From Amoebophrya sp. A120 (lineage: Eukaryota > Protista > Dinoflagellata): a stretch of 64,000 nt of DNA. This document shows positions 5,229-38,500 of this stretch, one piece after another. The DNA lies in assembly GCA_905178155.1 (NCBI GenBank), contig CAJINV010000001.1, positions 14,443,379-14,507,378 of the forward strand, written 5' to 3'. The position numbers were made by a program, and so were the translations under genes. The notes beneath the pieces were generated by a model, which saw nothing but the letters and a program-made list of their open reading frames with translations, was not told the DNA's origin and ran no database searches. How positions within the stretch are numbered: the stretch's first letter is position 1; the number at the start of each line of letters is the position of its first letter.

Positions 5229-8200
5229 TCACTCCTCTGCATCCTCCACGTGGTGATGATGGTAATGCGAGTAGTGTTCAAACTCTTCCACGTCCTGCGG
5301 CGACAGACGCTGGGAGGAGTTCTGACTGCCGTACCCGCGGAGGATTTGCGAGTTGCCTCGCTCGTGCGGCAGCGGCAGCGGCACAAAGTGCTTGTCGCGG
5401 AGGTACCGTGGCCTCCTCGTGTCGGCGTAGGAGTCGATTGCGGTGCTGATGTTGTGACAGAACTGCCGCAGCCCCGTGCGCTTTCCGAGTTTCTGCAAGC
5501 CCTTCGGAGACAACGGGCCCGGGGGCTTCGTAATGGTTTCGTCGGTAGAAACGGGCGGGATCACCAGCTCCACCGGCGGCGGGACGCCCCCCTCTTCCAC
5601 GAAGTTCTGGGCGTTGACTCCGTGCGGAACGTGGTAGTGTACGTGTTGCTGGATTTCCTTATCCGGTTGGTTTGCCGGATCTTTCCTGCTCCTGCTGCTC
5701 ATTGATGTTGCTGCACCACCAGCATGTATTACATTTTCCTCCTCTGTAGTCGAAGGCACCAGATAACTACCCGCGTCGTTTTCCGTTTCCGTCCCGGACA
5801 CGGTCGGCGCCTCGTTTTGCAGCGCGCCCTCCGTGAGCCTGCTTCCTCCGTCGACCGGCATGTTGGCCGTTTGGGCGAGGGGCGAGGCGTTCTCGGCACC
5901 TTTTCGCATCACCGAGGACTCGGACTCGCGCTCCACGTGGACCCGCGCCGCGTGCGAGAGCTCCTCCTCCCCGTCTTCCGTGACGTGGTGGTAGTGAATG
6001 TGGTGGTGCACATGACGGTGCACCTCCCCGGTGTGTGGGTCGCGCTGGTGCGCGGAGTCGTGCTCGGACAGCCGCGCCCCCTCGATCTGCTTCACCAGCT
6101 GAAATTTCTTCTTCTCCGCTGCCTGGAGCCGTCTCTCGCGCTCTTCCGCCCGCTCCATGTCGAGCTTGTCGAGCTTTGCCTGCCGCTCCTCCTTTTTCCG
6201 TATCACCAGTTCTATCGTCTCCTGCTCTTTTCGCTTCTTCTTCTTCGCCATTTCCTCCTTTTCCGCCAGCCACTTCGTGAGCGTCTCCACGCGCTTCGCC
6301 TCCCGTTCGTGCAGCTCCGAGTTGACGCCAACCATCTGCTGATGAAACCGCTCGCGCTCGTCTTCCTGTCGCTCGCGCTGCCGTGCGTCGAAGTCGCGCT
6401 TCTTCTTCGCGAGAAAAACGACTTTCCGCTTCCGCTCCTCCTTCAGGTCGTACAGGATCGACTGCTTCTATGGAAGTGTCAGGATTGAAATCGACAAATT
6501 TCTCACGCAGGAACTGCAAGGCATGAAGTGCCTCTCTTGCAGGAATGGCAAGGGAGGCCGACTGTTAGCCTGTTTGGGGTCTGTGAAGATAGAGCTGCTA
6601 AAGTAGCATGACAAGAGACGCCTTCTGTCCCTAAACAGCATGACAAACTGGATTTAGTAGACAGTGCCGAAAGTTCTCGTGCACCGCTTAGAAATTGGGC
6701 TTCCAACTGGTATCGATTTTATGCATTACAAGTTATTTCAACTTGTTTGTCGATTTCAATTCTGACACTCCCATAGCTTCTCCCGCTCGGACAGGTCCTT
6801 GTACTGCCGCCGGTTGCGGTATGGAAGCGTCAGGACAGAATCGTTAAAGTTGAAATAATTTCTCATGCAGGAACTGCAAGGCACGCAGTGCCTCTCTTGC
6901 AGGGATTGCAAGTGAGGCCGACAGTCAGCCTGTTTGGGGTCTGCGAGAGAGCTGCTAAAGTAGCATGACAAAAGACGCCTTCTGTCCCTCAACAGCATGA
7001 CAAACTGGATTTAAACGGTCCCGAAATTTGTCATGCAACGCTTAGAAATTGGGCTTCTAACTGCAACTGGTATCAATTTTATGCATTACAAATCCTTTCA
7101 ACTTTGTCGATTTCAATCCTGACACATCCATATGCGGTAGAACCGGCCCTCCCGAAACTCGCCGGCGTAGCTCTTGCGGTCCGCAACTTTCCCGGTCACG
7201 CTGTGTTCCACCTGCAGTGATGAAGACGTGCGCCATATTTATAACATCCTCTACTTCAAGCTCGCCAGGGTCTAAAAATTTAAGCGCGCCGTCATCCGCG
7301 CAGGCCCAGGTTTACACGCAAGATACTAGAACTTGAACTACTACAGTAGTACTAGTAGTACTAGTACATGTAGAAAATAAAAAGCTACCTGGCTAGCGAA
7401 GTTGTAATCAAATCAAGCAATACTGTAAGCTCCGGCCTGAATGGATTTCTCGGGAGAGGGGCTGGAAATTTGCCTTTGCGCCGTCTCTTGGGAGACGAGC
7501 TGGGGCTGCTGCCGCCAACCTCCTCACCTTCGACGGGACCTGCTCCCTCCTCTTTGCTTTCCGTCCGCGCTGCGGCTGCAGGGGAAGCCGCGGTGGACCT
7601 GAAAATGTTTACGCCCACATGACTAAGACAACGGAAGAGGCAAGACCAAGATCAAGATAGATCGACGAAATGATATTTTCCACAAACTTTCTCTAGGCTG
7701 GCTAGACTCACTTCCAATTCCAAACTAGTAGATCAAACAGTAGTTGTGTCTCACCCGCTTCCCGGTCTTCTGGGGTCGAACGCAGCTTGGGAGCTGGTGG
7801 CGGTAGGTATTCGCTCGGGACTCTGGCTTTTTCTTTTCGGCATTCGCGCTTCGAGATCCGTCATGTCGGGCGCGTAATCTCCCGCTTTCTCCTTGAACAG
7901 TATCCACGAAAAAACACCCATCCCCATCCAATTTGTCATGCGAAACATGCATGAAGTGCACTATTTGACGTCATGCAAAAAATGGATGGGGATGGGTGTT
8001 TTTTCCTGGATAAACAGCGTATGCACCGCACTGGGGTCTGGATCGGTGAAGATGAAGGCAGAATTGGTTACTTTTCGTTTTTTCTCCTTCTCTTTCTGTT
8101 GGTCTACCTGCTTTCCGTCGCCTTTTTTTGGCGACTTGATACCGATGGGGGATCCCTGGTGCTCCTTCTTTCCCTTTGTATTTGTGGCGAGTGGCATGCC

Positions 8201-11200
8201 GGACTCTGCTCGCGCCGCGTCCCAGTCCTTTAAGCGGTCCACCTCTTCATGAACCGCGATCGTCTCGAGCTCTATCGTAGTGAGGCGCTCCTTTGATTTC
8301 GATACCGGTGGTGGTGGCGGCGATGCAGCGGAATCTGCTGCAGCTGCAGCTATTGCTGGTGGTGCGTCTTCTGCAACTTTTGCAGGCTCTGGCGCAGCAC
8401 CAGCAACCGTTTCCGTTCCAGCAGACGGCGCTTCTGCTGCTTCTTTCGTCTGTGCTGGTGCCTCTTGTTGTTCTATGGGAAGATCATTTCGCGTTACGTC
8501 AAGCGCTGCGGCGTCTTCTGTCGCTGCTGTGGCTGCACTTGCGCCTCCGGCATCTGGTGGCGCGCCTTCGGGACCTGCTGCGAGATCTCTTTCCGTCTTT
8601 CCACCATCCTCTCCCACTGGTGGTGCCGGTGCGCTAGTGCTTGTCTCCTCTACCGCCTCATGCTTCTCTGCCTCGGCTGGTGGCTCTAAATCGTTAGGCG
8701 CGGCGCTCTCGGGTTCAGCGACAGAAGGCGGCTCAACCTGAAGTTAGTGGATCGATCATGGGAGCTGCCGTACTTTGGGAAAAAATCGAAATCAAACATT
8801 CGGATTCGGTGAGAGGTTGAATCGGAACCAAACCAGCAAAACAAGAGCTGGGAACAAAAGTATGAACAACAAAGCGATGTTACCCGCACCACACGCAACG
8901 AACTTACCTCGCCCTCCTCCATCACCACCTCTGCATCTGTTTGTTGAAAGTGTTTTTCCGCGGCCGGTCCGCGTAGAAAGTGGCCGGACGGCGACACCGG
9001 CGGTCGGGGACTCTCTGCCAGGGGCAGCCTTGGTTGGTGTCGCTTCATCGCGGTTTTGCTTGGTTTCAAGAGATTTCGGTCCTGCAGGTACTGGTCCTAT
9101 CCACAGTAAATTTTCCGTACACGTGGTACAGGTACACATGCGGTTTCTGCATGACAAAACTTGGCTTCGATCCTAGTTTAGCATAACAATTTTTACGCTT
9201 CAAATTGGTGAAATTTGTGATGCATCTTGTACATGTGCGGGAAATTTGTATTGCATAGGTCCACACAGAGCGCAACTTCCAGCTCCATCTCCTCCAACGC
9301 GAGCGACAAGTCCTCCACGTCGCCGTACCGCTCAAACTATGCATTGCAAAACCAAAAGTATCGTACTAGTATACTTAAAATGCATATACAAATTTTCCCA
9401 AGAAAAAAAAGCAATTTGTCATGCTATTTCAGGTAGATGAACATGAGAGTTGGATTTGTCATGCATATCTGCACCTAGTACGAGTACGAAACAACTTTTG
9501 CACAGGATACAAAGTACCGGTACTCGTCGAAGTGCCGGGAGGGGTAGAAATTCACCTGCACCATGACGGAATCCGGGCCGGTCTGCTGGTACTCGAAAAA
9601 CCCCCGCAGCGGCCAGCACGACTCCTCGATCAGGTCCTCCACGAGTTTGCGCCCCAAGTACCCCCGCCAGTGCCTCTGGATGGTGGTGGCGTTCTGCCGC
9701 AGCCACTGGTTCGCGAGTTCGACCTTCAGGTACTGGGTCGCCCACACCTGCTTCATCTTCTGCTGCACGAGCAGCAGTGCCTGGTGCGCCTTGCTGCCCT
9801 CGCGACTGAAACGAAGGAAAAGTTGCTCGCGTTCGATCTGAGATTTGTTTGTGAACCAACAGCAACAGGATAGATAGATCATGCCTGCTTACAGTGGGGG
9901 CTTAAGTCTTTCCTTCCTCGCGGATCTCTTGCTCATGGAGTGTGAAGTAGCGAAAGTCAGTATTGCGCTGCAGAAACAGCGGAGCGTTGGCGGAAGAAGT
10001 AGTGGTCTATCAATTGAAAAAATGATTTCTTCATGTTTATTGAGCATCAGTACGTCTCTGCTTCGCACGAGGAACCCTCTTGCTCTAGCCTGAATCGTTA
10101 CGGAAGCCTCGGCGCGGGCGTCGACCAAACCGAGAGCGTCCCGGAGAGCCTCCATTACCGGGGCGCGACCTACCATCATCCTACGCAGCTTGGCGATCCG
10201 GACTAGGGAACCTCGGAGTACGCGCTGGATGTCTACGATGCACTTCAACATGTAAGCCTGCTGCGCAGGTTCGCTATTGAAAAGCTCGTAAACGCCGTTC
10301 CTGTTTGTCGTGTTTCGGAATTCACAAAATGTAGTTTCCTCGGTAGTAGTACTCGTCGTGTTCTACATCAACACCACGACGTCGAACATTTTCACACAAA
10401 GACAAAACCGCAACCAAAACAGCCAAGCTCAAAAACAAGTCGTATCTGCCTGCTTGTGCGTATATATCAAATACGGCTTTTTGAGGATTTTTCCGGCCTT
10501 CACCGGTGCCATCTGGAGTCTGAAACGCCACGGGACAAAAGAGTCTTCTTGCAGAATGAAGTTGCACAAGACTGGGCGCTCTGCAATGGCGAGCATCTGA
10601 ATCTTTTTCGCCGCCAAGAACCTGTCAAATTCGTTTTGTGTCAAGAATCAGGAGGATGAGGAAAGGATGCGAGGGGGTTTTCTTTGATGCTGAAAGAAAC
10701 TGCAGTAAAAAGGGTCGCAACATCATGATTTTCTACTGTGTTGTAGTCTCAAAGAGACGAATTTCGGCCAAAACCTCCGGCGATCATGTAATTTAAGTCT
10801 GAAGATATCAACAGAGTATACCAGAAGAGTTTATAGAATCCCGGGTCCCAGGGTAGGGAGGACCAGGGAGGAGATTTTGCTATATAAAACCCAAAACCGA
10901 AAACCGAAAAATCATAAAAACCCCAATCGCGGCGGTATGGTGCTCTTTAACAATTTGCGCGAGTTTTCCATGCGGAATATACTCAATCCCCATGGTAGTG
11001 CGATGTCGGGAATGCGGCGACAAAAGACAAAGCTATAAGGCGACGCGATGGCAAAGGCAAAGCTACCCTACAAACGGACCGCGCAAAGCTTTTCAAAAAT
11101 ATTTCAACAATAAATTTCCAGCACATACACAAAATTTGCCCCTGATCCACATCCAACCGCCCCGGGCTTTGGACTGTTTTCTCCCCCGCGGGTTAGGCAC

Positions 11201-14200
11201 CCTGCCCGCATTAATTCCAAGGTCTTTACTCCCGTGCCACGCCGTCATGACTAAATAATGGCTATGCCTATTGAGTAATGTTCTGCAGGACACGGCGGCG
11301 CGGCGACCGATAAAGGAAAAGCAAGACCAAGACCCACGGCCCCTCTGGACCCGAACTACGCGAGAGGGCCCAGAGAAAGCCGCGCGCGGCAGGCCGGGCA
11401 CGGCCCGCCCGGCTGTCACAACGGTGCCCATAGCATGGGCGCGCACATGGGGTGGATGCCCAGGCCGAGGCCCACTGCCGCCCAACTTTTGGCGGGCCCC
11501 GCCCCTGCTCTTTTTGCCAGTCTTCATTCTCATTAGGGCGGCGGCATGCAGCTTCTCTGCTCCATCGTTCCTCGGGCCCTCGCCGGCAGTTCGGCCGCCG
11601 AGCTGGTTTGCCTGCGTGGGTGCGTGCCCACCGCCATTGCGACCGACCGGGCGAAGTCAGTCAGTCCAGTGGGCAAAATAAGTGGCGCCACCCTTCCTGC
11701 GGGCCCCTTCGCCCGCGCACGCCTGTCCTGGGGCCGGCCCCTTTTTCGTGCCCGCCCGCGCGGGCGGGGCGCGCCACGCAGGCAGTTTCTGGCTAGGGCG
11801 CGGGCGGTACACCCGCACGCCGAGTGCGTGGGACACACGCACGGGCCGGGCAATACAAGGAGCGAAGGCCCGGGGCCCCCGGCGAAATGGACGGGCGCGC
11901 GCCGGGGCGGACGGAGGCGGGCCAACAGGCCGCCTGGCTGCCCCGAAGCACAAGGCCGGCCAAAAGACTGCCATGGGGCGGCGCGGAGGGCAGGGCAGAA
12001 GCGAAAGCCGCCGGGGCGGGCTCGGACGGCAAAGGGCAGACTGGCCCGCCTCCCTGGCCGCGCTCTGCGGCGCACCCTTTCCCCGGGGCGGGCCAACGCC
12101 TCCAATATGCGGGCGCGCCTCCCGTGCGGCGGGCCCGGGCAGACGCACCAACGCGGAGGCCGCAAGGCGGGCCCCCCCGTTCTTCTTTTTTCTGGAAAAA
12201 CTGGAAAGAGCACGGCAGGGGCCTCCCGAATATCTCCCCGAAGCCTTCCCAAAATTTTCCAAAGCCAATAGAATGAAAAGCCAACGCAGAAAACACCCGG
12301 CGCCCCCTTGAAATACTTTCTTTCGGAAGCACTCACTGCGCTGGGCCGCGGCGGGCCAAAGCCGCCCGGAGCCATTCCGGACCCCATCCCCAGCGAGCAT
12401 AGCTACAAAAGAAGCCCGCGCCTATGCCGGGGCGGGAATGGAACACCACCAGCCCCCCTAGCCCGCCCGAATGAAATAGCCGCCGGGGCCTTGGGGCGAC
12501 CGCGGGCGGTCGCTCGGGTTGGGCCGGGCGCTGCGCACAAGGCCGCGGAGGCCAGAGAGACGCTTGCCGCTTGCGGCCGGCCGCAAGAAGCCTCCGGGCT
12601 TCGCGCGCAAAAGCCAGCGGGCGCCGGGCCCCCGGCGCGCGGCTGTTCTTTCACTCTGCAACAAAAAACCGGCGGGGGGGCCTGGCCCGGGCAACTTCTA
12701 ATGGCCCACCCGGGGTGCGTGGCGCAGGGGCCAAAACCCGGGCCCAGTCAAAAGCTAGCGCAGGGGGGGCCTTAGCCCCCGCCCCCGAGTTGCTTCGCCC
12801 GCGATCGCCAAAGAGCCGCAATACCCTACAGCACCAACGGACGCACCCACTGGCGCCGCGGTATGTAAGGTCAGCGGGAGGCATTTGCGTGCGCCCACTG
12901 CCATCCTGGCTCCTGGGCCAAGTCGCCTCCCCGCCGGCCTGCCATTTTGCCCGGTGGCGGGCGGCCTCACTCGCGGGACCTCCCAAAGGCTGGCCTGCAA
13001 AAACCGCGCGGGGCCCCGCCTTGCCACAACGCCCCCGCCCCGCGCTGCTCTGCCAAAATCGCGCGCGAGGGGCGCTGGCGACCCCAAAAGGGCCACCGAC
13101 ACAACAAAGGGAGCGGGCGCCCCTGGGCATGGCGAAAAACGCAAGACCCACGAAGGGCAGCCCTTTCGGTGTTTGTACATACTTAGTGCCAGGCGGCTCA
13201 AAAAAAAAAAAGGGCCCGGCGGCGCGCCGCGCCGGAGTGTCTTCCCAATGCCAAACGCGGCGCGAGCTGGGCAGCCGAGGGCACGGCACGCACAAACGGC
13301 GCCCCGGCTGGCGGGCAACAGACGCGCCAAGGGCTTGGGGCTTTGGAAACTTTTATTTTGGAAAGTGGGTGGGGAACTTGCGCTAACAGGGGTCGCCACT
13401 TGTGCGCCCCTTGCTCTGCGCCATGCTCTACGAACAGAGAGCGCGTCTGGATTCAGCTCCCAGGAGCGGAGTCCAGCCTTCCTCGGACCCAGCTCCCGGC
13501 GAAAACTGCACGGCGGCACGACTTTTGGCGCCTGAGTTTTATGGCTATGGCGCTCGCCGGCCTGCGTGGCAGCTTGCCAAAGTCAACGGCTGGCAAGCTG
13601 TAGCGCACAAATGAGGCTGAGGGGCCAAGGAAGTGCGAAGCTGTTGAAGTGGCTTTCTCAACTCTCAGTAGCTTTATTCTCCTTCGTTTCTGCGTTACAA
13701 ATGCAGAAATGAAGGACAAAAGAAACGCGAAGAGCTTTCTCCTGTCCTTCGTTTCTGCGTTACAAATTGCCATCATGATTGGCAAGCTGTAGCGCAGAAA
13801 TGAAGGGCAAACTATTGAAGTGGCTACTCCAACTGTCCTCCATCGGAAGAAAGTTGAAAAAGTAGCCACTTCGATAACAACTGCATGACAAATTGCCACA
13901 GTAGTGGCAGTTGTTGAAATTGAACAACAACGCAAACGCGTTCAAATTATAGCCACTGCAGCAAGAATTATCTGTGTTGTTGTTCAGTTTGCAACTTGTC
14001 ACGCAGCTTTTGATGAAGTGGCCACTTCAACTCTCCACCAGAGTGTCGTGAGCAGCTGCGCGACACGTTGCAAACTGAAGCTGGACAACGACGCCAATTG
14101 TTGAAGTGGCTATGTCAACAATTTGCGTCGTGTGCGAGCAAAAATTGTGAAAGTGGCCACTTCAGCAGTTCGGGTTCTGCGAATTGTTGAAGTGGCCACT

Positions 14201-17200
14201 TCAGCAATTCGGGTTGTGCAAAATGTTGAAATGGCCACTTCAACAAAACCCGAATTGCTGAAGTGGCCACTTCAACACTTTGCACAATTATTTCAACAAT
14301 TTGCACAACGCAAATTGTTGAAATAGCCATTTCAACAATTTGCACAACCCAAATTGTTGAAGTGGCCACTTCAACAATTTGGGTTGTGCAAAGTGTTGAA
14401 ATGGCCATTTCAACAGTTCGGGTTCTGCGAATTGTTGAAATGGCCACTTCAACAATTCGGGTTCTGCGAATTGTTGAAGTGGCCACTTCAACAATTCGGG
14501 TTGTGCAAAATGTTGAAATGGCCATTTCAACAATTCGGGTTCTGCGAATTGTTGAAGTGGCCACTTCAACAGTTCGGGTTGTGCAAAGTGTTGAAGTGGC
14601 CATTTCAACAATTCGGGTTCTGCGAATTGTTGAAATAATTCGGGTCGTGCAAAATGTTGAAATGGCCATTTCAACAATTGCAATTTAGGGTTTTGTTGAA
14701 ATGGCCATTTCAACACTTTGCACAGCCCGAATTTTTGAAATCATGGCCACTTCAACAATTCGCAGAACCCGAATTGTTGAAGTGGCCACTTTCGCAATTT
14801 TTGTTCAATTTCAATAAATTGTCACTATTGTGGCAATTTGTCATGCGCTTGCTATTCAAATGGCTACCTCAACTCTCCGCGAAGTTGAAGTAGCCACTTC
14901 AACACAAGCTGCGTGACACGTTGCAAACCCAAGCCGAACAACAACAAGAACGCAAATTGTTGAAGTGACTACTTCAAAAATTTGCACAACGCAAGTTTTT
15001 GAAATGGCAACTTCAACAGTTTGCCTGTGCGAATTGAAGTAGCCACTTCCATAACAACTGCATGGCAAGTTGTAAACTGAACAACAACGCAAACTGTTGA
15101 AGTGGCTACTTCAACAATTTACTGCGTCGCTGTTCAATTTCGTCACGCAGTTGTTATTGGTATGGCTATCAGAAAGCTGAAGGGGCCTTGGCCCGAAAGT
15201 TCGCCATGCCATCGGTGAACACATTTTGAAAAAATGCCCGATGCTTTTTTTATATAGACGCGAACGCTCCTCCCTGGTCCTCCCTGGTCCTCCAGGGTCC
15301 TCCCTACTCCCTGTCTATAAATTTCTCTGGTATACAGAGCGACGAGCTGTGGAGGAGAAATACAAAGTGGAGGAAAAATACAACTTAGATAGTACGATTT
15401 CATGGCAGAAGCCAATGTCTTCTGTGCGATGCCGCGACGCTGCTCTTTCATTCGTCGCCTTCTTCGGACTGCCAGCGTCATTCGAAAAGCGCACTGCATC
15501 ATGACGATCTGTTCGTTCTTTCTCTTCTCGGCGCCCTGTTCCGTCAACATCCTTCGATATCGCTCGCGACCTTTGATCCTGTGAAGTCATGGCCATGGAG
15601 TCGGAGATGGAATGTAACTGACGGTGCGAGAACAAGGCAGTAACACTTTAACTTTATTCGCACGGCCGTCTCGTCCAACAGCGAGTCCATAATTTGAAAT
15701 TGGATGCACAGATTTTGCGCATGGTCATCTTGCCTTTTTTCAGACCAGAGAAGGAGTAATCCGCCATGACCCAGAGAGTGAATGTGAAGTAGTTGTAGTA
15801 GCTAGACCGAGTTCATCCTCGTGGCATTTATCTTTATAAAAGTACCCTCTTTGCAGTGCTTGAATTGAAGTGGCGGAGCGAATGAATTTTCGATTTCGCA
15901 TCCGGGCCACTAGCTTTTTCGCCAATACGATTCGCATCCGCGTCTGTATGGGAACTACTATCTTCCCCAGGTGTCTTCGGTGCGCCAGGAGCGGCTTGAT
16001 GCGTTTCCTGACGATGTAACTTCGCGCAAGACTTTGTATTCGCACCGCGGCTTTGTCCCGACGCGCTCCGGTGGTTTGCGACAGCAGCAGTTCCTCTTTG
16101 CCGTCATCCGTCTTCTGGACCTTTAGCCGGAGTTTCCCCCGTAAGGAGGGCGCCACGCCACGCGTCAGGCTGGTTCCCTTCTTCTCTCTGTTGTGTGATA
16201 TTCATCACGTGCGGAAAAAAGTGCTATATTCCTATAGCTACTCGGGTTGTCAACATGGATCTTCTGAAGAACGTGACGGTTAGGGCGGTGATGTTCAAGA
16301 GTTGTTAGAAGTATCTAGACTATTTAACTGCGTCATCAACATAAGTTGTGAACAAGAACAAAACGTACTTCATTTCCTTAAAGCGCTTCTTCGCTAGTAG
16401 TGATCGAATCACTGCCTGCACTCGGATCGCGACCGCGGCTAGCTGGGCGTCTCCACTAACTTCGAAGGTCGGCTTCTGTGGGTCGTTCGGATCTGGCTTT
16501 TTGGCGACCGCCATACTCGGATGCCGTTCCTTCATTGCCTGCAGAAGCTTGAGTTTCACGAACAGCTTGTGATTCCAGAGCGCCGCTGGGTCAGCGTAAG
16601 TGCTTTTCCCAGTGGATTTGTTGTGGAAAAACCGCTCCCCCTTGTCGTCCTGGCCCTCGGTCCACTGGTCGAGCTCCTTTTTTGTTTTCTCCTCCTCCTT
16701 CGCAAGCTTCTCTTCCAGTAGCCAAAAGCCGCCACGAGAAACCGCGTCGCGGTAAGATTGCGCCATGTCTCGGTAGACATCATCCAGTGGATGGCTCCAG
16801 CTGCTCTCCCCACTGGTGGAACAGTAAAAGTAGACGCGGCCTGCGTTTTTCAGCCAAGTGATTTGAGGAAAACTTGTCTCAAACCATTGATTGGATTCTT
16901 GATGTATGAAAGATTGACAATAGCCTAAAACCCTACTAAATAGGGTTTTAGGTGGTCATCACGATCACTGAACATATTCATCATATGATATGAAAATGAA
17001 AAAGAAAACTGAAAAATACATATCGCGTACCTTGCGGGTCCATGTACTCTCCCCAATCTGGCGGCAATGCTGCTTGGTAGGCTGCCTCTGCGATCCAGAG
17101 CATGTGGGGGTCTCTGAGTGGGTCAATTTCAAGCGTCTTGACGTACTCCATCATTTCGACCACACCGGGCTCTTGGACCCCGCCGTCGCTACTGCTTGTG

Positions 17201-18480: not shown

Positions 18481-19705
18481 TCAATGCTGTTTATTCAAAA
18501 CTGTCTTTCTCATGAGAAAAAGAATGGACACGCCAGCTACAAGAACCGAGCCCGCGGCTACAATTGCCAGCGCAGCTGTATCGGTTGTTGGATGCTGGAA
18601 CATAGTTGAAATCTTCGGAGCCACTCGTTGCACATAAAACAGCTCAGCCTTAGCTCGAGATCGGCGCAGCGCGGACATTGTGCGAATTTCGTGCTTCAGT
18701 TTGTCGCGTTCCCACTCGCAATTTGCAACCGCAAGCGACTCCCAGTCTTCATGCAGTGGGCCAAAAAGTTGAAGCGACGCTTTCTTGTTTGATTTAAGGT
18801 CCGGCGCCGTCGAAGTAGAATCTACTCTGTGAGGATCTTCCTCAGGCTCCTCTGGCAGCAGCGAGCTCAGGAAATTTAGACGCCCTAGCGTAAAGCAATC
18901 AGGGGACAACACGGAATAGGTGTATTCGAACGCCACACTCTTTGTGTACCGCTCATATCCCTCCGAATCGGGAAGCGCCAGAATTGACAGGTCTAGATCG
19001 AGAAACAGTGACCCCACGAGGTCTTTATCTGCAAGTAATCGGTCGTGCTTATGTCCCGCTGTCTCCCGGATCCACCTTGCTACACGCCTGACAGATTTGT
19101 CTTCCAGCAGTTGCGCGTTTCTCTGAAATTGCACTTTCTGGACGTCGGCGTAGAAATCAGACTCGAATATTCGCGCCGAAACCTCCTCGTTGTCTTGCCG
19201 CGCTGGGTCGTAAACCAGGTCGTGAAAAAAAACCGCAAGCTGCAGGTCCCGCAAATCTTGGGATGTGAGCAAGATCCCCCCTTTCAGACGGGCTGTTTCG
19301 TCTTCTAATTTTCGCAAGAGAAACGCAAGATGCTCGAGCGTATGGTACCTGCGGTGCACTTCGCAATAGCGGTCTTCGATCACCTGCCACCAGTACCGCA
19401 CCTGGTCGGGATTCAGCCGGAGCGTATCCTGTGCCAAAGTATCGTACCTACTCGTATATAGTAAATGCAAGTCTTGCATCGCAAATTTTTGTCTGAAGGC
19501 AAATCAACATTACAAGTTTTATTTTTCATGCTGAGGAAATTTGTAATGCATTTATACGAGTACGATACTTTTGCAGTTCATAGAGCGTTACTTCGGACAA
19601 TTCGCGCCACGACCGCTCGACGTAACCCGCGGAGGCAGCAGATATGTGTTCCTGCGGCGGCACGCCAAAGGCTCGAGAAAGAAGTACTTCATTGTTGTTG
19701 GGCAT
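18481..19705 (-). CDS. HD-superfamily metal-dependent phosphohydrolase (COG4339-like) with C-terminal transmembrane tail; 2 exons, ~353 aa
   Basis: Motifs RRYHTLEHL, AVFFHDLVYDP, DNEEVSA, FLDLDLSIL, YTKSVAFEY and GRLNFL. C-terminal AALAIVAAGSVLVAGVSILFLMRK. Removing the introner at 19425-19582 plus 5 nt joins ..RELSEVTL|RLNPDQV, so the ORF-track N-terminus lies inside the intron. Confidence 0.82.
19425..19582. mobile_element. Introner family C (158 bp) in the HD gene
   Basis: Ends TATCCTGTGCCAAAGTATCGTAC / GTACGATACTTTTGCAGTTCATA. Perfect TSD GAGCG. Frame restored. Confidence 0.9.
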
Positions 19706-26500: not shown

Positions 26501-29500
26501 ATAGGCTGAGTATCAGCACTGATCGACAGCGCCTGCATATTAGTGTCCAAAGCCTCCAAAGACAAAGTCGCGTCGCGCTCGGCGCCTCCTTCTGCATCCG
26601 GATGAAGACCCGCTGCGAATTCATTGCCCTGGTCTCCGTGGTCAACATATAATCTGGCTGAACCATCAAAATGCTGCTCATCGTCGTTGCTATGTCGGCC
26701 TGAACCATCCGAATAAGCATCGCTGTCGGCAGCCTCAGCTTCAGCCTCAGCTTGAGCATCGTCGTTGCTATGTCGGCCTGAACCATCCGAATAAGCATCG
26801 CTGTCGGCTTCAGCTTCAGCTTCAGCTTTAGCATCGTCGTTGCTGTGTCGGCCTGAACCATTCGAATACTGCCCTGACTCCGCGTCGCTCTCATTGTCTG
26901 ATTCCACATCCGCAGTTGCAGAAGGCGGCAGTGGAGTACGAGTAGTGATCTTTTCTTCAATAATATCTGTTACAAAGGTATATTCCAAAACTCTGCTCGT
27001 GCTCATCGCTATTCCGCCCGCTTCTTGTCCAAGAACGGATACCAAGACGATACGAAGTTCGTCTAATGGTAATGTCGTCAAATTTTCTTTTAGGTTGCGA
27101 AGTTTACTGATGACATCATTCTGCTGGTCGTTGCGAAGCTGCGAGGCGATGGCGTGATATGACGCGGAAGTTGTGCTGTGATCATGTGACGGCGGGGCAC
27201 TCGGGTCGTCCACCACGTCCACCATGCCAGTCAGTGTGGCTTCCGACAGCCCAGCAAATTTCCCTTCATGGCGACGTATGCACTGCAAAAATATCGCATT
27301 AGTTTTGGAATCAGAATTTCTCTCTCTCTTTAATGCTGACCCTGACTGAGACTGAAATAGATACCTTTGCGACGATACTTAGTTATCACGACGCTGCTAT
27401 CGAAAGAAAAAGTGTTGACGTTACGGCTTTAAGTTTTTTGGAAAAAAAAAAATTTGGGTGTATGCTGGAGGTATGTTTTTGGTTTGTAAGTCGACCCATT
27501 CCCGCGATTAGTTCTCGCGGGACTGCGACGAAGCTCGCTTGGTTTGACCTAGCTAGTGCACAAAATATGACGGCGTAGGACTTCGCCTACCGGGGCCGCC
27601 CCCTGCCGTGCCTTCTCCCCGCCGCCGGCTCTTAGATCCGGGCCAGAACGCTCAAACCTCGAACCGTGGCTAAACCTCGGACATGTGGGCCTATGAGCTG
27701 GCATCTAGACGGCGTCTCCGCCAGTTCAGCTCTGTGCGGCTTTGCAAGTTTCCATCTCGGACCTTTCGGCGCCTTTTGTCAAATTTTCTCCATGATTGAA
27801 GAAAAGGTGGCACTTTCGAGGATGAGGGAAATGGGCAAATTTTGGGTACCAAAATGCCCAAAATTTGCCGGCACCCCAAAAACCGTCAACGCCTCATCTA
27901 GACACGACGGCATGGTCGATCGGGTCTTCCAGAAGCCTGCTTTTTTGCATGAAATCGACCAAAAAACCGTCAACGCCTCATCTAGCCAGCACGCTATGCT
28001 CGATTTGCCTGCTCAGAAGGTGCGCTCCCGTGCCCGCTCCGGTTTGAGTGAAGGGAAATGGACCATAGCGCGCTGTCTAGATGAGGCGTTGACGGTTTTT
28101 GTGGGATCTGCATTTTTTGGCCTCGAAATGGCGTCAAATCATTGATTTTTTCCTCGGATTTTTCCAATTCCCCAAAAAACCGTCAACATCATATAAAGAC
28201 AGCATGCTATGGCCCATTTTCCCTCACCAAAACAGGTCCATCTCCGGCGTCGATCGTTGCGACGCGTTGGTGGGCGGGTCTTGTCAGCAGTGCCGGGGCC
28301 CTGGCCCACCGGCTTACAGCCATCATGGCTCTTGAGCCCGGACAGGGATTGGGCAGCCATTTCAGGGCTTGAAGGGGCGCAATGTTGTGGCGGGGCCTCA
28401 TAGTTTTCGCACCTTGTGCACTAGCTTCCTCTCCCAGAGTTTTACCACTTTAGAGCCCCGCAGGGGCAAAGAGGGAGGCTGCGCGGCGGCGAGAAAAAAA
28501 AAAATTAAAATGATGGTGCTCAGTACCCACAAAAAATCTTTTTTCCAAAAAACTGCAAACCGTAACGTCAACACTTTTTCTTATGATAGCTGTATTTCCA
28601 GTGCCATTGCGTTTTTCGACAAAAATATATATAGTATTACACGATACTTTTTCACAAGATACCAAGGGTCGACAAGTACTCTCTCGGGAGTATGAAAAGG
28701 GTCCTCAGAAGTCGCAGTCGGTTTTCATCTTCACTTCTTGAGCGAGCATCTGCTGGCGTCGTCTGATTCTGGTCTTGTTCGTCGTGGCCCGCCTGTGTAT
28801 CTTCATGGTGGGCCACAGATGTACTTGCTAATGGTAGTTTCATCCGCCGATAGTACTGTTCCAATGTTACAGCGGCTAGGTCAATTCTTTCTGTGTGGTC
28901 GTTCGCTCCTTCAGCTTCTGTTCTACTTTGGAAGATGACCCGGCTCCAAGCAAATTTGCTCGGATAGTTGCAGAGCTTCCGTGCCCATGCGATCCGAACA
29001 GCAAATGCCCACCAGACTTCATTATCATCGCAAAGAGTGCCAATACGCTGATCCTGATGCATTCTATTGCTATTACTATTCAACCTCAAGTAGTAAGGTG
29101 CGACACCGTCTTGCCCCAGTGAGTCTCCAGATAGTCGCGAGGGTTGAAAACGTTGGAAGGCTGTCTTCAGCATCGTTTTCAGTTGGGCTAGCGGTCTACC
29201 ACCGCGGCCCGCATCATCCTCTGGCGCCAATAATCCGTCGAGAAAAGCCGACTTTAGATGTCGCAGCTTTGGTAGGTTCTTCGTAACGGCGTTGCGCTGT
29301 AGTGCAAACGCCAGATCCTTCATGTTCGCCTGACCTCGGAAGTATTCCTCCTGTAGCCTTGGCTGAAGATGCTCCTCGAACTCGTCCCAGAGTGTCTTCA
29401 CATCCGCTGACATCGTCACTTCTAAAACTTTTTCTTCAAACTCGTTGACGAAGTCGTTTTGGTACCTCGCGCGAAACGCCGTCATGCTTGCAGAATCGTT

Positions 29501-32500
29501 TGCCTGGATATTTAGCACGCCGCACCACAACTCCTCTGTAGCGAGACGACGCAGTTCTTCCATCGTCACTTCCAGAGCAGTATCATCCACGTGCCCGCCG
29601 CCCGTTCGCAAGGCTAACGGGTGCGCTCCACGGACCTTGGTGGCCCACGCGCTCTTGCTTGCGGCGGCTCGTGCATAGACATCGTGCGCCCGTTGGACGG
29701 GACTTGCAGCAACGCCTGCCTCAGCATCACAGCTTGCCGGTGTATCAGCCACAGCAAAAAAATTCGCTGCGTCCCCGTCTGCTATCGCGTCGGCATCGAT
29801 GATGTTCTCGAGAACAGCTTCTAAGACGACGCGCAACGGCTGCGGTAAAGCAGCGGACAAGTCGCTGCTTGCCGCAACATTCCAAGCCTCTTTCCACCTT
29901 TTCAAAGCGTCTCCAAATATCTCGGAAAACTGCTCGTCATGCGATAAGGCCGTCAATACTAGAGGGCTGTCATCCGGAAGGTCCTTCGCAATGACGTTGC
30001 TCCATAGCGAACGAGCCTCCGGGAATAACTGCACCGAGGCGGGAAGCTCTTGCACGGAGGTATCTTCTTCGAGAAGCACAAGCGGTTCATACGTCACTTT
30101 AAATTCGTACTCATGCATCTCGTCCTGTTCTGTATCTGTTTCTGTTAGCGTGGCGATGATATTCATGGTTTTCGTTCGAGGAGCATCGCGTGGTTGGGCT
30201 TCTCCTTGGTCGCCCTGCAACTCTTCTCCTGTCTGCGTGGCCTCCGGCTCCCGGCGCCGGTGCTCCTCCAGCTCTTGATCGAACGCCTGTTTCACTCGTG
30301 CCACTAGACCCTCATCGAGCTGGAGTTCCGCGAAGCCGTCCGACGGTGCCTCGACGTCAGCAGGGCCAGCTTCGTGGGATTCCTCCGCGTCCGGAAAGCG
30401 GTGGCCGTCGATTGCGCCCACGATGTCACCACCGACCGAGCTCGCGCCAGAGGAGATGTGATACACGTTGACGGGTAGAAGTTGCACAACCTGGTGCGCG
30501 CCGGCGCCTACACCGTTTCCATGGTGGTCTTGTAGTTCCTGCATCGCGATGTCGTCATTATCTCCAGCATCTGAGAACTCCACTGACGCCTCGACCTCGT
30601 CGGTTTGTTGTCCGGCGGGATAAGTGCGCCCAGAAGCGGAAGCTGCGTCGCTGCCAGCAGCGTCTGCTTCCTCGCGTTCGAGCTTCGCTTCCTCCGCTGC
30701 CAGTAGCTCGTCCGCCTTGCGCTGCTGCTCGAGCGCACGATTGTAATTGCTCTCCATTTGCTGGGCCCAGCCGGTCTTCCCATTTCGCGCGGTCTCAAAC
30801 ATGGCGATCAACTCTTCCAGCAGACAAAGCGAGAGCTCGGTTGGTATCTCTCTAAAGCTCTCGCGCACACTCTCCGTTGCCTCCCGTGCCGAGCGGCCCG
30901 TCGTCTGGAAGAGGAGTGCGTCCGCATGGTCGATAATTTTGTTCCCCCCGACCCCGTCGAGCGCGAAATACGGTTCGAAAAGATCTATCACCTCGTAGAA
31001 ACGATCGGCAGGCCGCACGTAACCAGGCTCGATGTCGCCAACAAGCCTCTCATGCACAACCCAATACGACGCTAGGTCGTGCAGCGCCAAAGTAATCTGC
31101 TGGGCGCGGCCAGAGCGCAACACGAGACGTGCCGTATCGCGAATGTACGTTCGCTCTTCGACGTCAAGAGACTCGCACCGACGAAAGACGTACTGCGATA
31201 CCGGCAGAAGTGCCGCCTCTTCGGCTGTGATTTTTTCTTTCTCTACGGCTGGCGTTCTCGAGATCGCACGGTTCCCCGCCGTGAAAGCAGGCACACCAAA
31301 ACCAATCTTTTTCTTTTGAGCAGGAGCACAACTGGACCTATCGACATCCCCGGGGTCGTCCGAACCCGCAGTGCTCACAGCTCTCATTTGTCTGTAGTCC
31401 GGATAATCGCACAGAACTGCCTCTGCATAGGGCATGTTGGCACGACTTGCTTCATCGGGGAAAGACTCTCCTGAACGCCGCCGCCGCGCAGTTTCTCTTT
31501 CATCTTCTCTACTGAGCGCATCCAAAATAATCGTAGCAAGGTGCTGGGCAACGTCGGGCTCACCTCGTACAACAGCACCGCCAGGCCCCTCGACCGCTCT
31601 GCGTCCTGTTGCTCCAGAATAATATTGCAGCTGGCGCAGTGCGTGTGCGTCGCCAGAGATTGCCGCGGCCTTGCCAAGATACTGCTGCCCTGACTCTTTT
31701 TCAAAAAAGTTGCTGGGGTACTGGTGGTAGTAGTGGCGAAGCTTTGCCTTCACCTGGGCGTCGCGATCCTCCGGCGCACCGTCGTCCTGGTCTGGAAGCT
31801 TCGGGTCTTCCTTCTTCCACTCCTCGTGCAAAACACTCCAAATCAAGCTAGAAAAGAAGGGTCTGGCTTTGTGCTCTTTCTTTATCAAAAACCACCGCGC
31901 CAGCGTAAACACTTGGCTTGCAGTCACCCGCTGACCGCCCTTCTTTGCGATCTCCTTCAAGAACTCGAGCAATCTTTTGGAGCGCAGCTGCAGTTTCCAG
32001 TTCGTCGTCGAATATTCAAGCAATGCCGTGTTCGCGTATTGCTTCCAATTGAGAACCGCAGCTGACGTCAAATGTGCGAAAGGCAGCCCGGAAGTTGCGT
32101 CTTGCAACATACTCGCTGAAGTAGACCCTGCCAGTGCAGAAGTAGGCTGCACAAGAACTGGACGCGGCGTAACGGCTGCTTCAGGCGGTGACGCGGAGGT
32201 GATAGCAGCGGCACGGCGCGGCGACAGAAACCCGCTGGGGCGGCTCTGCGTAGGAGGAGAGCCGTCAGCACCGCCTCCGTTCGTGCTTGGAGGTTCTTGC
32301 ATGTTCAGCTCGGCGCTGGTCTCGTCCAACCACTCGCGCAGCAGCTCTCGTTGCCGCTTCTGGACCTCCACGCTTATGGCACTTAGCGCACGCCGTTGCG
32401 CAAGTTGGACCTCGTCGACGCGTTGCTGATGCTCGTGCAGAAAGTGGCGCTTCAAGTAGCTTGAGATCGTAGTTACGTCGTGCGTCAGGTTGTCGAGGTC

Positions 32501-35500
32501 TGTGCCTTGGTCGACATGCTGCGGGGGCATCGTTGCTTGGAAGAAGTCCGCAACCAACTTGAGAGGGGTGGGCACGTCGTAAAAATCGAAGAGCAGGCGC
32601 TGCTGGAGCTCGGGGTACTCATCGCCCTTTGCCACCAGGGCCGTGGCGGCATCGGAAGCGGCCGCCGCCACGTCTCCTTGGTGAGTGGGGTGCGAACCAT
32701 AGGGCCCGGCCTCCTCGTTTCGCAGGATTAACAAATCCCGATCAGCCAGGTACAATGCGTAAAAAGTATGCTCCAACTGGTCAACTAACTCCGCATCCTT
32801 ATCCGCCTGCGATCGTGTAGTTTGCGGCGGTTCTACGCCCACTTGTTGCTGTTGCTCCGCTGGTGCTCTGTTTCTGTGCAAGTTCGCGTGCGCAACGAGC
32901 TCCTCCCAGAATCTGTGGCTGTCCCGCGTCCCGAAGACTCCTGCATCTGCATCGCGCAGAGAATGCAGTGCACGGGGTCGCTTCGCACGCCAGGTCTCTT
33001 CTGATATGTAGCCTGCTTGCCGAGCGTGGGCGAGAAGCTCGTTTTGTAAGTTCACCACCTCACGGAACGCTTTCTCCATTTTGCCACCCAGCCCGAAGAG
33101 CTCCTGCATGGTATGACTCCACACCCTGACTGCCGCACCCGCTGCCGCAGAATTACTGCTTGCCCCGCCTGCGGTTGCACCGACAACATCGTATCCCGAT
33201 TGTGACAGCTGCCCAGCCCTGCGGTGATAACTGCGCGCCTGCGAAGGTCCTGCCGCAGAGCTGCCAGAGGAGCTCGAAGGAGTTGTCGATGCTGCCATTA
33301 CTAACTCGACGCATGATTTTTTTTCCCAGTCGGTGGTCGATGACAATGTCCTCTTTTCCACGGCCAAGTGGATCAAGCAGGTGATCGCAGCTTTTCCTGC
33401 TTGCAACGCGTCAACCGTGAGGACGTTGCGCGCGTCGGAGTGCTGTAGACCATCGCCAAGCCTGGATCCGTGGTCGCTCCCGCGATTCGTAATCCCGTAC
33501 GGAAAAGCGTTTAGCCGGGCATCCAACATTTTCTTCAACACATCACCGGAAACTTTGCAAGGGTTGAAGCGCCCGGTCTCCAGGCCTTGCGCCAAATGCG
33601 CCCAGAGCCGAAGCGCAGGGAAAATCAAGGAGGGGCCATTCAACGCTGCGAAGAGCTGCATCCGCCAGTTCTTGGCGTTGCTGGCGAACGAACCAAACAA
33701 CGTGCGAAACACCTTCAGGGGCGCTACTTCGTCACCAGTAGAATCGCGGCCGCGCGTGCCTCTACTTTTGCTCGCCTCGAGACGTGTGCGGATCACCTGC
33801 TCGATCTCGCCGCTTTGCGCCAATCGGATGTTTTCCCCCTCCGCATCGTTAGCCCAGGCGTCAAAAACTTCGCTTTCCACTTGTAGCTTGCTGTGCAGCC
33901 AGCGGTGCAACATGCTGGGAGGCCCTTGGAACTGCAGGATATCGTCTGCCGCGGCTTGAAACGACGCTAACGAGTCCGCGCACGCGTCCGGGCAATCCGG
34001 AATCACGGGGCGCACAACCTGACGCAACGCCTCGCGCTCCCAGAACCGGCGGTGCTTGGGCGCAGAAAAGTCATTGAAGTACGGCAGATAGTCGGCTACC
34101 GCGCTCTTGCGCACCTCGGGAACGTTGGTTGCGAGATCTGGATCTCCGTAGACAGAGGCAATCTTGTCGTCTCTCGGGTTGTCGTTCCACGTCGGGCCGA
34201 TGGCTTCTTTCGCGACATTGTCCCTCTGCACCACCCGACGTACATCAACAGGCGTTCCAAGTTTATCTGCCGCGTTTTGGAAGACTGCAGCGATCTCAAA
34301 AGATGTCAGGTCCACTCCGTCCATGCTCCGTAGCCGTTCCCGCAAGAATCGCACGTCCGAAATCAGGTCCTCGGTGGCAGCAGATAGCCAAGAAAGAGCC
34401 GCGCCGTCGCTGCTTGAGCTGGCGCCACCAGCTGGTGCTGGTGCACCTGCTGCATTTGCGGAAGCAGTATGAACTGCAAAAGTTGTATCGTGCCAGTAGT
34501 AGTAGTTGTAATTGAAATACAATAAATTAGCTCAGCGTGGCAAATGGAATTTGTCATGCTGTTTTGCGTTGGGAACGGGATGGAGGTTGGTAATGCATGA
34601 CTGCGATTTGCACCACGAGTACGATACTTTTCTTGCACAGGATAGCCAGTGGCTGATGTACTTCTTCTCGGTCCATACACGACGTCTGTCAGTACGCGAC
34701 TGGCGTGCACTGCGGCCAGCAGCAGCTGGCGCTCCGTCGAGCCCACGTCGCGCCGGGGGCCCCACCAGTTATCCAGGAAAAAACACCCATCCCCATCCAT
34801 TTTTTCATCATCGATCAATCGGCGGTAGTGCTCTTTGCCGACCGGGTAACCCAACGCCTGGCATGCATATTGACGAGCCCCGTTGTGGGACTATCGAGCC
34901 CATCCACTTTTTGCATGACAAGCACTGGAGCTGGACTTTTTGCATGTTTTGCATGACAAACTGGATGGGGCTGGGTCTTTTTTGTGGATACCAGTACAAA
35001 CGAGAATACGTCTGATCGGGCCCGGGTATGACGCTTTCTGGCCGAGTGCGGTCTTCCTCGGGCGTCACGTTCTCTTTCTCGGCAGACTCGCGTGCGTCTT
35101 GTGGTAAGTTTCGGCGCGCTCGTGGCGAGTGACGTTTCCACATCTCGTTAACCTTATCGAACTCTCCGTCATTGTCCGCCAACACGTCTCCTGTGCGGCC
35201 TTCCTCCTTCAATGCGTCCAGGTCCGCGATCTTCGTTCCTTCTCCGCCCTCCGCTTGTGCGAAGTCGAATTTACGACCGTAGACAAATACGTTGTTGTTG
35301 GTGCCAATCATTTTGTAGTTGTCTGGTGGCAGACCAGTTTCCCCGTGGCCTCCGCCGATCCGCTTGCCGCACACTCCACACGCCCCCTGGTCCCTGCCCA
35401 GCCCGCCACAGGCGGACACGCGCTGAATTCGTCTGCAGAAAATGTGGCGAAACATCGACGTAGTCCGTCTTGAGGTGTCGGCTTCTAGCTTGCTGGTGTA

Positions 35501-38500
35501 CACTGAGTACATGATCTCGGCAAGATCCTCGGAGCCGGACATCCCGGGAAGCCACAGGCTATCGTAGTTCAGAAGCTTTTGTGGGCTCAATGGGTGCAGC
35601 AGCGACACCGCGTAGTCGGCAGTTGCGGGACCTAACTCCTCCTTCGGTGGAAGCATCTGAAGCATCGCCAAACGCAGCAGGAACGTGATTGCCGTCAGTC
35701 GCTCGTCGCTTCCGTAGTCATCATCGTCTTGTTGTTGAACCGCAGTACCTGCGGCCCCTTGCGCGTTGCCGTCTTGTACGCCGGCACCTCCATCGACGAC
35801 GGATGTTGCAGAGTCATGATCCTGTGAAAATGTAATTTGGCGCTGAGCCCAGCCTCGACAGTACTTCAGAACGAGGCGCAGTTGCTGCAAACCAGACGCG
35901 GAGGCATCCGCATCAAGCTCTTCTCTGGCGGCAGCGTCTCCAACGATGTCCCACAGTGTGTTCTATGCATTGCAAATATGTTTGGTTCTGGAACAAGAGA
36001 GCAAGTAAAGTTTGTCATGCTTGTCTCACATGACTCTTAAATCTGTAATGCACGACCAGGAAAAACAAAGGCTCTTCCCTGTCATGCAAGTATGCAGTTT
36101 GTTATGCGGAATGCGAAACACACAGGAGCTTAAAAACTCGTCATGCGTGGCTGCATATTGCAACGCGCCCACGATTCACAAACTAGCATCACAAGTATCC
36201 AGACCCAGGCGTATTTGCATTGGATATGTTCAGCTGCGAGTCAGACAGGTTGTCGTGGAACACATAGCGTTGGACCGCCGCATAGCGGACCGCGCGCCAA
36301 AAGGGCTTGCTTGCGCCTTTTGCTTTTAATATAACCGCACCTCCGGTTCGCGTGCCGATCTCCCGCTGGATGGTTTCCAGAATCCAATTCATCCTATCAA
36401 ACGCGGGGTCCTCGATGGACTCGCTTCCCGAACGCAAGTCCAGCAATTCGTCCCAAACAATGGACATCGCCACGTAAGCTTCTTTTGCGATCAGCGCGTC
36501 ACGAGCGGCAGCGGAATTCTGCTGTATGGCGGTGTTCGGGGCGTCTGCGTGTGCTACTTGCGCTCCCGAGGAGCCCGCCGGCGTGTTTTGTTCATCCTGT
36601 GCAGTGACAACTTTCGCGGCTTCGTAGAAAAGACCACCAAACACATCTGGCGCCACAGGCACACCAGCTGCTTGGTTTTGTTGTTCTCCATCTTCTTGTT
36701 CACTGGGCTGCAACTCTGCAACTGCGAGCCACTTGTTCTTCTGCAGTAGGTTCACCAAGAAGCTGAGGTCGGTCTTTTCTCGGACCAGACGCAGAACGCG
36801 TGCTTGTAATGCAGGACCGTACCTGGTATTCTGCCAAATTTCCTTAGCCTCCGCTACCGAAAACGTTTCGGCTCGCGTGTCTTGATCTTGTCCGTCCTCC
36901 GCAACGAAACGCAGTGCGTTTGCGTTGGAGCCCAGCTTCACTTTGGACAACTCCTCAGCTAGCGCAAGCGACGCTTGGTGCAATACTGCCTGCTCCTTGA
37001 GAACGCGGCTTACAACTTGATCTTGCAAGTCGACCGCCTCTTCGCGGGCAAGTTGCCGGAGCGCACCCTGTATTTCCCTCAGGTACTCAGCAAGAACGGT
37101 CGCGGAATCGCGCACGCCTGAGTGCGCCTGCTGTATTCGCTTCTGAGCCACATACTCGTGCTCATACGCCTCCGAAACAGCACGGCGCAGAAACCGCTTT
37201 TCCTTTGCTTTCTCTTCGTCCGCTTCGAAACATACACATAGAGTCTGCACGAAGTCTTCGAATGGAGACAAGTCGGACTCGGAATTTTCTAGACCCAGAG
37301 CCCTCCGCTCCATAAAGGCAGAGGTGGCTCCTGGCGGAGGGGCGGGCACGTGGCCATCGTCACTCTCACTGTCCACATCCTCTTCATCTTCCTGTTCCGA
37401 ATCGATCTGATGTCGCCGGTGGCATCGTTTTCTTAGCCTTCTTGCAGCGCTTGCCCTCCTCCTTGGCGTCGGACTGGTGTTAGTACAAGTACTGTCAATA
37501 GTCATCACGTGCTGGTGGCGCTCTTTTTCGTGTAAACGTTCGAGGAAAATCTTGGCAACCAGCAGACGCGTTAGGGACCCGGTCTCATCCTTCTCTTCGA
37601 CGATGCTATCAAGGAGCTTCATTACAGCCTCAGGGTCGTCTATCAAATGTCGAAGGAGTCGACGGGATTTCGGACCGAGGGACAGTAGATGACCAAAAAA
37701 CACTCGCAATGTGCTGCGCGGAAACATTGTCTTCATCATTCGGACTTCTTGCATATGTTCTCTCTTGACACCTCCACTGAGCGCGTTCGTGAAGAACTCC
37801 ACCACGGCGCTCGGCTCGCCCTCCTCCATATCAATGAGCGCCCCATGCCCATCCTTAGCTCGACATCCAGAAAAAAACACTTAGCCCCATCAATTTCAAT
37901 TTTCTATTCTGTATGACAAACGCTGGACATGAGTTTGCACTCGTTTTTTTTCATGCATCTTCATGCTTTGCTTTTGCATAAACAAATATATAAAAATTCA
38001 AATTGAATGGGGATGCGTATTTTTTTGTTGATACTCGAAGCTCCGTGAAAATGGGCGCCTGGGATCTTTTGTCCCTTATCCCAGTCTTGTCTGGATCAAA
38101 AAAGTGCTCTCGCTGCGCTGGATTGGTCAAAATGGAAATCATGAGCCACTCTAACTGTAACCTCTCCTCGTTTTTCTTCTTGTGCCCATCGGCCGCCGCA
38201 ACATCGGCGTTTGCGATTTGCCGCGGGAGGGCCGCACGGATGCCGGGGAGGAAGGCCCACCGATGAAAGTGCAACCAGAACTCGAATTTCCGCATTGCTT
38301 CGTCCTCTAAGGCACCTATCGCCCCCTCACTAGTTGTGGGCTGCGGGGATCCGCTGGCCCGGAGCTGCTGCCCGGCTGCTCGCTCCACGTCAGCTCGGCG
38401 GGTGCTGTAGTTACGCCCGTCCAGACTGCGTAAGTCTGTGCGCAGTAGTTGGAATAGGCTTTCCATCCGGGTCACCGATAGTCAGAAAAACACCCACCCC

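Follow-up and report, generated by a model that had tools for sequence, protein, structure and literature searches.

An internal motif shared across introner families of Amoebophrya sp. A120 as a putative binding site for a mobilising protein

Why should introners that belong to different families carry the same short motif in their interiors? The question is raised by a stretch of 64,000 nt from Amoebophrya sp. A120 (contig CAJINV010000001.1, positions 14,443,379-14,507,378), here called the window and numbered from its first base, in which we looked for inverted TAT…ATA ends together with a 5-bp direct repeat and, after completing the list by hand, had 21 elements. These elements match the published introners of Amoebophrya A120: in both, the inverted ends read TAT-N7-AAA, short direct repeats are present at the borders, removal does not follow GT-AG and there are many families, as described in the accessible text of Farhat et al. 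2021 (PMC7789003). The same text puts the introners at about 30,000 and their families at 1,954, reports no transposase and argues against a general transposase-mediated mobilisation. An earlier note on the window had pointed out a decamer inside the elements and had proposed it as the site of a common transposase or excision factor. We think that the decamer is the core of a motif that probably serves the moving of the elements, and the evidence for this is presented below.

The enrichment of the decamer is real and not a product of chance, as is confirmed by its counts. The window holds 14 exact matches against a shuffle mean of 0.13, with none of 100 shuffles reaching 14, and 28 matches against 5.8 expected when one mismatch is allowed. 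On recount, the 13 exact positions listed in the earlier note and its exonic copy at 63077 were all correct, and both orientations do occur, seven of the 13 element copies being on the plus strand and six on the minus strand. Its near matches held in part: those at 6606, 34913, 37911 and 50803 (given there as 50805) have one mismatch, but those at 38514 and 38931 have two. Density amounts to 13 copies in 9,926 bp of elements versus one in 54,074 bp outside them. The elements, for which no strand is given, and the lone outside copy are as follows; TSD stands for target-site duplication, TIR for terminal inverted repeat and PWM for position weight matrix.

6469..6775: A1 (family A), ends TATGG…CCATA, TSD GCTTC; sites at 6606 (near), 6638 (exact) and 6723 (TTGTAATGC)
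6820..7132: A2 (family A), TSD TGCGG; exact copies at 6963, 6995 and 7027, in 32-bp steps, and variants at 6859 and 7083
7901..8012: B1 (family B), TSD AACAG; exact copy at 7932, just inside the 30-bp TIR
9098..9257: D1 (family D), TSD GGTCC; sites at 9149 (exact), 9181 and 9214, their centres 31-33 bp apart, and a motif-like TIR tip at ~9245
9338..9509: C1 (family C), TSD CAAAC/CAAAG; exact copies at 9415 and 9455
10817..15334: H1, 4,518 bp, ends TAT…ATA, TSD CAGAG; exact copies at 13883 and 14837
19425..19582: C2, TSD GAGCG; variant sites only (TTTGTAATGC at 19540)
25278..25466: C3, old copy, TSD with two mismatches; without TTGTNATGC
27277..28661: C4, old copy hosting the nested G1; no motif site in either
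27398-28588: G1, 1,191 bp, nested in C4, TSD GCTGC/GCTGT, with 67-nt inverted arms
34468..34644: C5; exact copy at 34550; loose contig ends compatible with its removal
34770..34990: B2, TSD CCAGT; exact copy at 34951 and near copy at 34913
35964..36226: E1 (family E), TSD TGTTC; exact copy at 36011 and variants at ~36042, 36098 and 36186
37864..38033: B3, TSD CTCGA; one-mismatch copies at 37911 and 37947
38477..38976: B4, TSD TCACC/TCACG; two-mismatch copies only (38514, 38931)
50151..50298: C6, old copy; no site at a PWM score of at least 8
50666..50873: F1, TSD TTTCG; variant sites at 50711, 50745, 50803 and ~50834, forming two pairs 31-33 bp apart
55671..56062: X1, old copy; without TTGTNATGC
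63077..63086, minus strand: the only exact copy outside any element, inside a 299-aa open frame (62682-63581)

The 13 element copies are distributed over nine elements of six families, all with TAT…ATA ends and a 5-bp duplication, and therefore cannot be taken as 13 independent events. A1 and A2 are identical at 267 of 298 positions, while B1 and B2, as well as C1 and C5, share TIR families. The exact decamer is missing from the remaining 12 of the 21 elements. In A1, a third site has decayed by three bases at ~6671-6680, where paralogous contigs have the motif letters at 6673, 6676 and 6679.

The pattern extends beyond this assembly. Metagenome contigs scanned with the end pattern of family A yielded 13 loci (L001-L013) of a second assembly, from which L012 was dropped as a duplicate of L007; family A is over-sampled in them because its pattern was used for their retrieval. 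The window and the 12 loci together form a set of 83 elements, sorted into eight TIR families plus singletons, and the families of the window recur in the second assembly. There, the exact decamer is present 48 times in 14,475 bp of elements and three times in 55,896 bp outside them. Fifteen locus elements had been added after the search, by BLAST to known elements or by inspection of stray motif hits; the strict list, which excludes them and keeps the elements found by the TIR/TSD search, gives 38 copies in 11,144 bp versus 13 in 59,227. Of the scans of viral contigs, one gave a single match, a chance match in the phage-like contig L014 with no surrounding element, and another gave none.

Sharing of the motif goes further than sharing of the sequence around it. 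With the motif masked, the 83 whole elements fall into 18 clusters at an E value of 1e-3 and 26 at 1e-5, and their interiors into 43 and 54, respectively. The most widely shared interior 10-mer is GCATGACAAA, found in 9 of 17 groups of elements shorter than 600 nt, where the maximum in 20 shuffles was 2-4. Refinement gave a motif of about 12 bp with the decamer as its core, aATTTGT(C/A/G)ATGC(A/G/T), and a PWM trained on the elements themselves finds 13.9 sites per kb inside elements versus 1.15 per kb outside at scores of at least 8. Two further descriptions were tried. The flank profile did not support a quasi-palindrome of 19 bp; all that recurs is a GCA nine bases past the GCA of the core, in 7 of 13 groups. 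To regard the motif as copied from the TIR tip is valid for families C, D and E only, and this was kept as a partial description; the likeness of tip and motif has a permutation p of 0.0125 overall, for a register picked after looking.

Comparison of copies within families, using a leave-family-out PWM and a block null, indicates that the core is constrained. Identity in core and spacer is 0.92 and 0.82 in family A (16 copies), 0.87 and 0.70 in family C (23 copies), 0.86 and 0.71 in family E (11 copies), 0.81 and 0.72 in family J (6 copies), and 0.99 and 0.91 in family D (4 copies), with p ≤0.001 in each of these. In each of the six families compared, conservation of the middle base of the motif (0.61-0.83) is lower than that of the core, and in A, C, D and K it does not exceed that of the spacer; this freedom argues against mere alignment anchoring or neutral inheritance.

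Besides being conserved, the sites are regularly spaced. A pair of sites 31-33 bp apart is found in 9 of the 14 groups that have at least two sites, a number that the null reaches, in any 3-bp window, in 4 of 1,000 trials. With one member per group, gaps of 31-33 bp make up 11.9 of 36.1 adjacent gaps, whereas in 2,000 null layouts the best window averaged 4.9 and never exceeded 9. The DNA helix has about 10.5 bp per turn, so that ~32 bp corresponds to three turns. There seems to be a second preferred spacing, 49-52 bp, mainly between back-to-back sites (families A and M and element L011_2932, and J and K too), and sites reading inward concentrate at ~35, 45 and 53 bp from the tip. A fixed strand relative to the transcript, as in a spliceosomal signal of the branch-site type, was not found: among elements whose exact copies have a single orientation, and which lie in minus-strand genes, B1 and C1 have them on the plus strand only and A1 and B2 on the minus strand only.

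The borders of the elements are those of the published introners. TAT occupies positions 1-3 in 99-100% of the ends, although the search itself asked for TAT; of the 166 ends, 159 start with TAT and 33 with TATGG, and A is found at end positions 11-13 with a family-weighted frequency of 0.70-0.85, family A departing from the rest after TAT. A perfect 5-bp border repeat is present in 46 of the 83 elements, and a perfect one of 4, 6, 7, 8 or 9 bp in none. The element finder assumed a 5-bp repeat, but independent support comes from RNA-like contigs and from the host gene. In the former, C3 is skipped as 194 nt (189+5) in three of three runs, C4 with its nested G1 is skipped whole as 1,390 nt (1,385+5) in three of three runs, and B4 as 505 nt (500+5) in one of three, while loose contig ends fit the removal of C5, B2 and E1. 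The three runs represent one sample whose RNA status was guessed by a tool; exon sequence is identical and depth drops toward the 5' end of the gene, both of which fit RNA. The host gene (23594..56780, minus strand) becomes a single open frame of 9,827 aa when ten elements are taken out with one TSD each. Between 5000 and 10400 there is no RNA cover, the raw RNA runs X8 and X9 giving 0 and 6 reads and run X3 lying off those exons. In a DNA-like run, depth was 11,000-80,000 in element bins versus 38-51 in unique bins, which is not to be read as a copy number.

Some observations accompany this region. The 9,827-aa frame has weak AAA matches below the Pfam cut-offs and may be an RNF213-like giant ATPase. 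RNA-like contigs break or end identically in the three runs at 26708-26811 and at 30714, and a short coding repeat occupies 26680-26860. In run X9, the TIR of family A (7101-7132) is matched at 90-95% by six raw reads with different flanks; family A may exist in the organism of that run. Two uninterrupted open reading frames (ORFs) on the minus strand encode a phospholipase B (PF04916, 1485-3902) and an NADH:flavin oxidoreductase (PF00724, 20972-22231).

Is the motif then used for moving or for splicing? C3, C4, G1 and B4 have no TTGTNATGC and zero or one internal PWM sites, yet they are skipped exactly, so the motif is not present in every removed intron as a spliceosomal cis-signal would be. 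Because elements without an exact copy are precisely missing from the RNA-like contigs, a site for an excision or splicing factor is unsupported. Old copies point the same way. Site density declines with TSD decay (rho -0.23, p 0.036, 81 elements), and in family C, where 6 old copies (at least two TSD mismatches) were compared with 10 young ones (none) and 7 intermediates were left out, core divergence rises from 24/319 (0.08) in the young to 47/178 (0.26) in the old and spacer divergence from 105/406 (0.26) to 95/244 (0.39), whereas tip divergence is steady (32/280, 0.11, and 15/168, 0.09). This decay fits a motif that is selected at transposition and not after insertion.

Taking these results together, we consider it probable that the motif is a double-stranded-DNA binding site, putative as yet, for a mobilising protein and not an excision signal. 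Of the earlier proposal of a transposase or excision-factor site, the first half thus agrees with the sharing, constraint, spacing and strand-independence of the motif, but the second does not agree with the skipping of elements that lack an exact copy. One face of the DNA would present sites, in steps of about three helical turns, to multiple subunits of a transposase or of a cofactor, and the bound subunits might help to pair the element ends, a role that subterminal repeats play in Emigrant/Lemi1 and Hermes. Amplification would be limited to copies with good sites, and for this reason the motif would be kept in master lineages and would decay after landing. Splicing would rely on the tips or their hairpin rather than on the motif. 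A broader version of this proposal, which we find possible and hold only tentatively, is that one transposase, alone or with a cofactor, moves most of the ~2,000 families of A120 through ~12-bp boxes three helical turns apart, that the diverging TIRs serve mainly as a splicing hairpin, and that the enzyme is IS3EU/GingerRoot-like with 5-bp duplications.

Several points weigh against a mobilising-protein site. Internal sites are lacking in C4, C6, the elements X3 and X4 and L013_3214, as well as in G1, which at 1.2 kb with long TIRs has no motif site at all, and even the 9-mer TTGTNATGC is missing from 10 of the 21 window elements; the claim of the earlier note that the motif unifies the system is therefore too strong. 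Family K (3 copies) has no excess conservation of the core (0.78 vs 0.76, p 0.27), and the alignments may be anchored on the motif. TIR tips score as motif in families C, D and E only, and sites are only weakly phased relative to the tip (p 0.026 if non-independent entries are included, 0.054 if each group is entered once, and no phasing in the opposite orientation). The conservation of tips in old copies is partly built in, since elements are detected by their tips. As for the enzyme, no Pfam match was found in 14 H1 ORFs and one G1 ORF of at least 120 aa, in a scan with no frameshift-tolerant search, and none was a transposon family among the 59 of 88 locus ORFs of at least 130 aa that were scanned; H1 ORFs of 50-119 aa were outside the Pfam scan that found no match in H1. 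Finally, spacers between paired sites are more alike between families than shuffles are (312 vs 258±12), with p 0.025-0.045 after trimming 3-6 nt, and therefore remote ancestry contributes or the motif extends further. The description of the families as otherwise unrelated is thus acceptable insofar as their masked interiors mostly do not align, but copies within a family are inherited and spacers across families are slightly above shuffles. Part of this likeness may be extended motif and part remote common ancestry; ancestry and function are compatible, since the motif may be what selection has preserved of an ancestral end.

Other explanations have to be weighed against the same data. The motif could be the site of a host DNA-binding or chromatin protein, so that the elements carrying it were amplified more or tolerated better. 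We regard this as fairly unlikely, even if conservation, strand-independence and helical spacing would be expected from it as well, if no transposase is reported for A120 in the accessible text of PMC7789003, and if MITEs (miniature inverted-repeat transposable elements) that amplify host factor sites are on record (PMC5950925): outside elements, intergenic DNA included, the motif is at chance level (one exact copy in 54 kb, and the PWM densities given above, 1.15 vs 13.9 per kb), and a TIR tip that scores as motif in C, D and E suits a protein that binds ends. A neutral relic, in which all families derive from one ancestor made of ~32-bp repeats and the motif is its recognisable remainder, would explain the plain inheritance of copies within families, the identical >32>33< layout of families A and D and the spacer likeness beyond shuffles, and it is still unlikely in our opinion, because the core is kept while spacers diverge and the middle base drifts (with core excess in five of six families), because the number, order and orientation of sites vary among families, and because the masked interiors of the 83 elements fall into 43-54 clusters.

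A signal at the RNA level for the non-canonical splicing or excision machinery is equally unlikely. The motif does lie inside non-GT-AG introns whose splicing is unexplained according to the accessible text of PMC7789003, and opposite copies within one intron could base-pair, but the motif is found on either transcript strand, with single-orientation elements of both kinds; C3, C4 with G1, and B4 are skipped exactly with no exact copy, in one sample of guessed RNA status; and the core decays in old copies. Could the motif be due to chance, or reflect an artefact of the composition or of the assembly? H1 and G1 do look error-prone in places, with many one-base indels in G1 relative to the X4 contigs, but that none of 100 shuffles reaches the count and that the motif recurs in the second assembly and in paralogous contigs refutes this explanation, for which we see practically no chance.

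The two long elements have peculiarities of their own. H1 has a GC-rich core and a 39-bp satellite, its exact copies at 13883 and 14837 standing on either side of the satellite in inverted orientation. The satellite region (~13.9-15.1 kb) contains inverted blocks, and the length of H1 is near the consensus length listed for A120 fam103 in the available record, a likeness in length alone. Window positions 1-660 are GC-rich with short repeats at their end and resemble the H1 core in look; they may belong to a further long element, of which the window edge leaves just the end. G1 differs from the X4 contigs by many one-base deletions, and one X5 contig spans 28136-28419; it may be a copy rich in assembly errors or a family that uses a different code.

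Known systems offer a frame for the preferred reading, that of a site for a mobilising protein. A repeated, conserved motif inside the ends, as in subterminal repeats, is found in the A120 elements. The available descriptions of the Emigrant MITE with Lemi1 (PMC1636448) and of the subterminal repeats and BED domains of Hermes (PMC10368747) likewise tell of short motifs inside the ends, in either orientation and distinct from the TIR; binding is cooperative there. The putative site in A120 is longer than that of Hermes (~12 bp vs 4 bp) and, unlike the Emigrant and Hermes repeats as described in those texts, is common to families with different TIRs, lies throughout a small element and has the 31-33 bp spacing. 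With respect to the enzyme, the TA..TA ends suggest, as no more than a lead, an integrase-type transposase like that of IS3EU/GingerRoot, elements that, according to the accessible texts of PMC10045372 and PMC12730594, have TA..TA termini in common with A120 and TIRs reaching at least 30 bp. The ends of family A, TATGG…CCATA (e.g. 6469, 7132), match the TAYGG..CCRTA of fungal IS3EU (PMC12730594, in its available part). The integrase-like nature of this transposase is in line with one A120 family, fam38, that is annotated as '5-bp TSD, TA/TA Termini' with integrase-like (Copia-like) homology in the parts available of Gozashti et al. 2025 (PMC12130899), whose supplementary file 8 was covered for 56 of 58 A120 rows. 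In contrast, the TSD of IS3EU/GingerRoot is usually 6 bp (PMC10045372 and PMC12730594), and the A120 elements have 5 bp, with no perfect 6-bp repeat among 83. A 5-bp TSD is that of hAT5 (PMC12730594, same part), and hAT elements use subterminal repeats; this duplication is a lead, and only a lead, to a hAT5-type enzyme, and no hAT transposase was seen among the ORFs scanned here.

The elements are already published, and the internal motif with its spacing is apparently new within the literature searched. The motif string is absent from the text and supplement of PMC7789003 and from 12 of 14 supplements of PMC12130899, as far as these are searchable, which figures such as the logos of Fig. S25 are not. 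Neither motif nor spacing rule was found in the published literature searched, subscription papers and bioRxiv supplements lying outside that search, and a literature search on subterminal repeats of dinoflagellate introners found nothing.

We think that a motif that is shared, constrained and spaced in this way offers a bait for the mobilising enzyme and a signature by which its autonomous element could be recognised. Moreover, two jobs appear to be separated in the introners of Amoebophrya A120, in which the internal boxes are likely to be for moving and the tips are likely to be for splicing.

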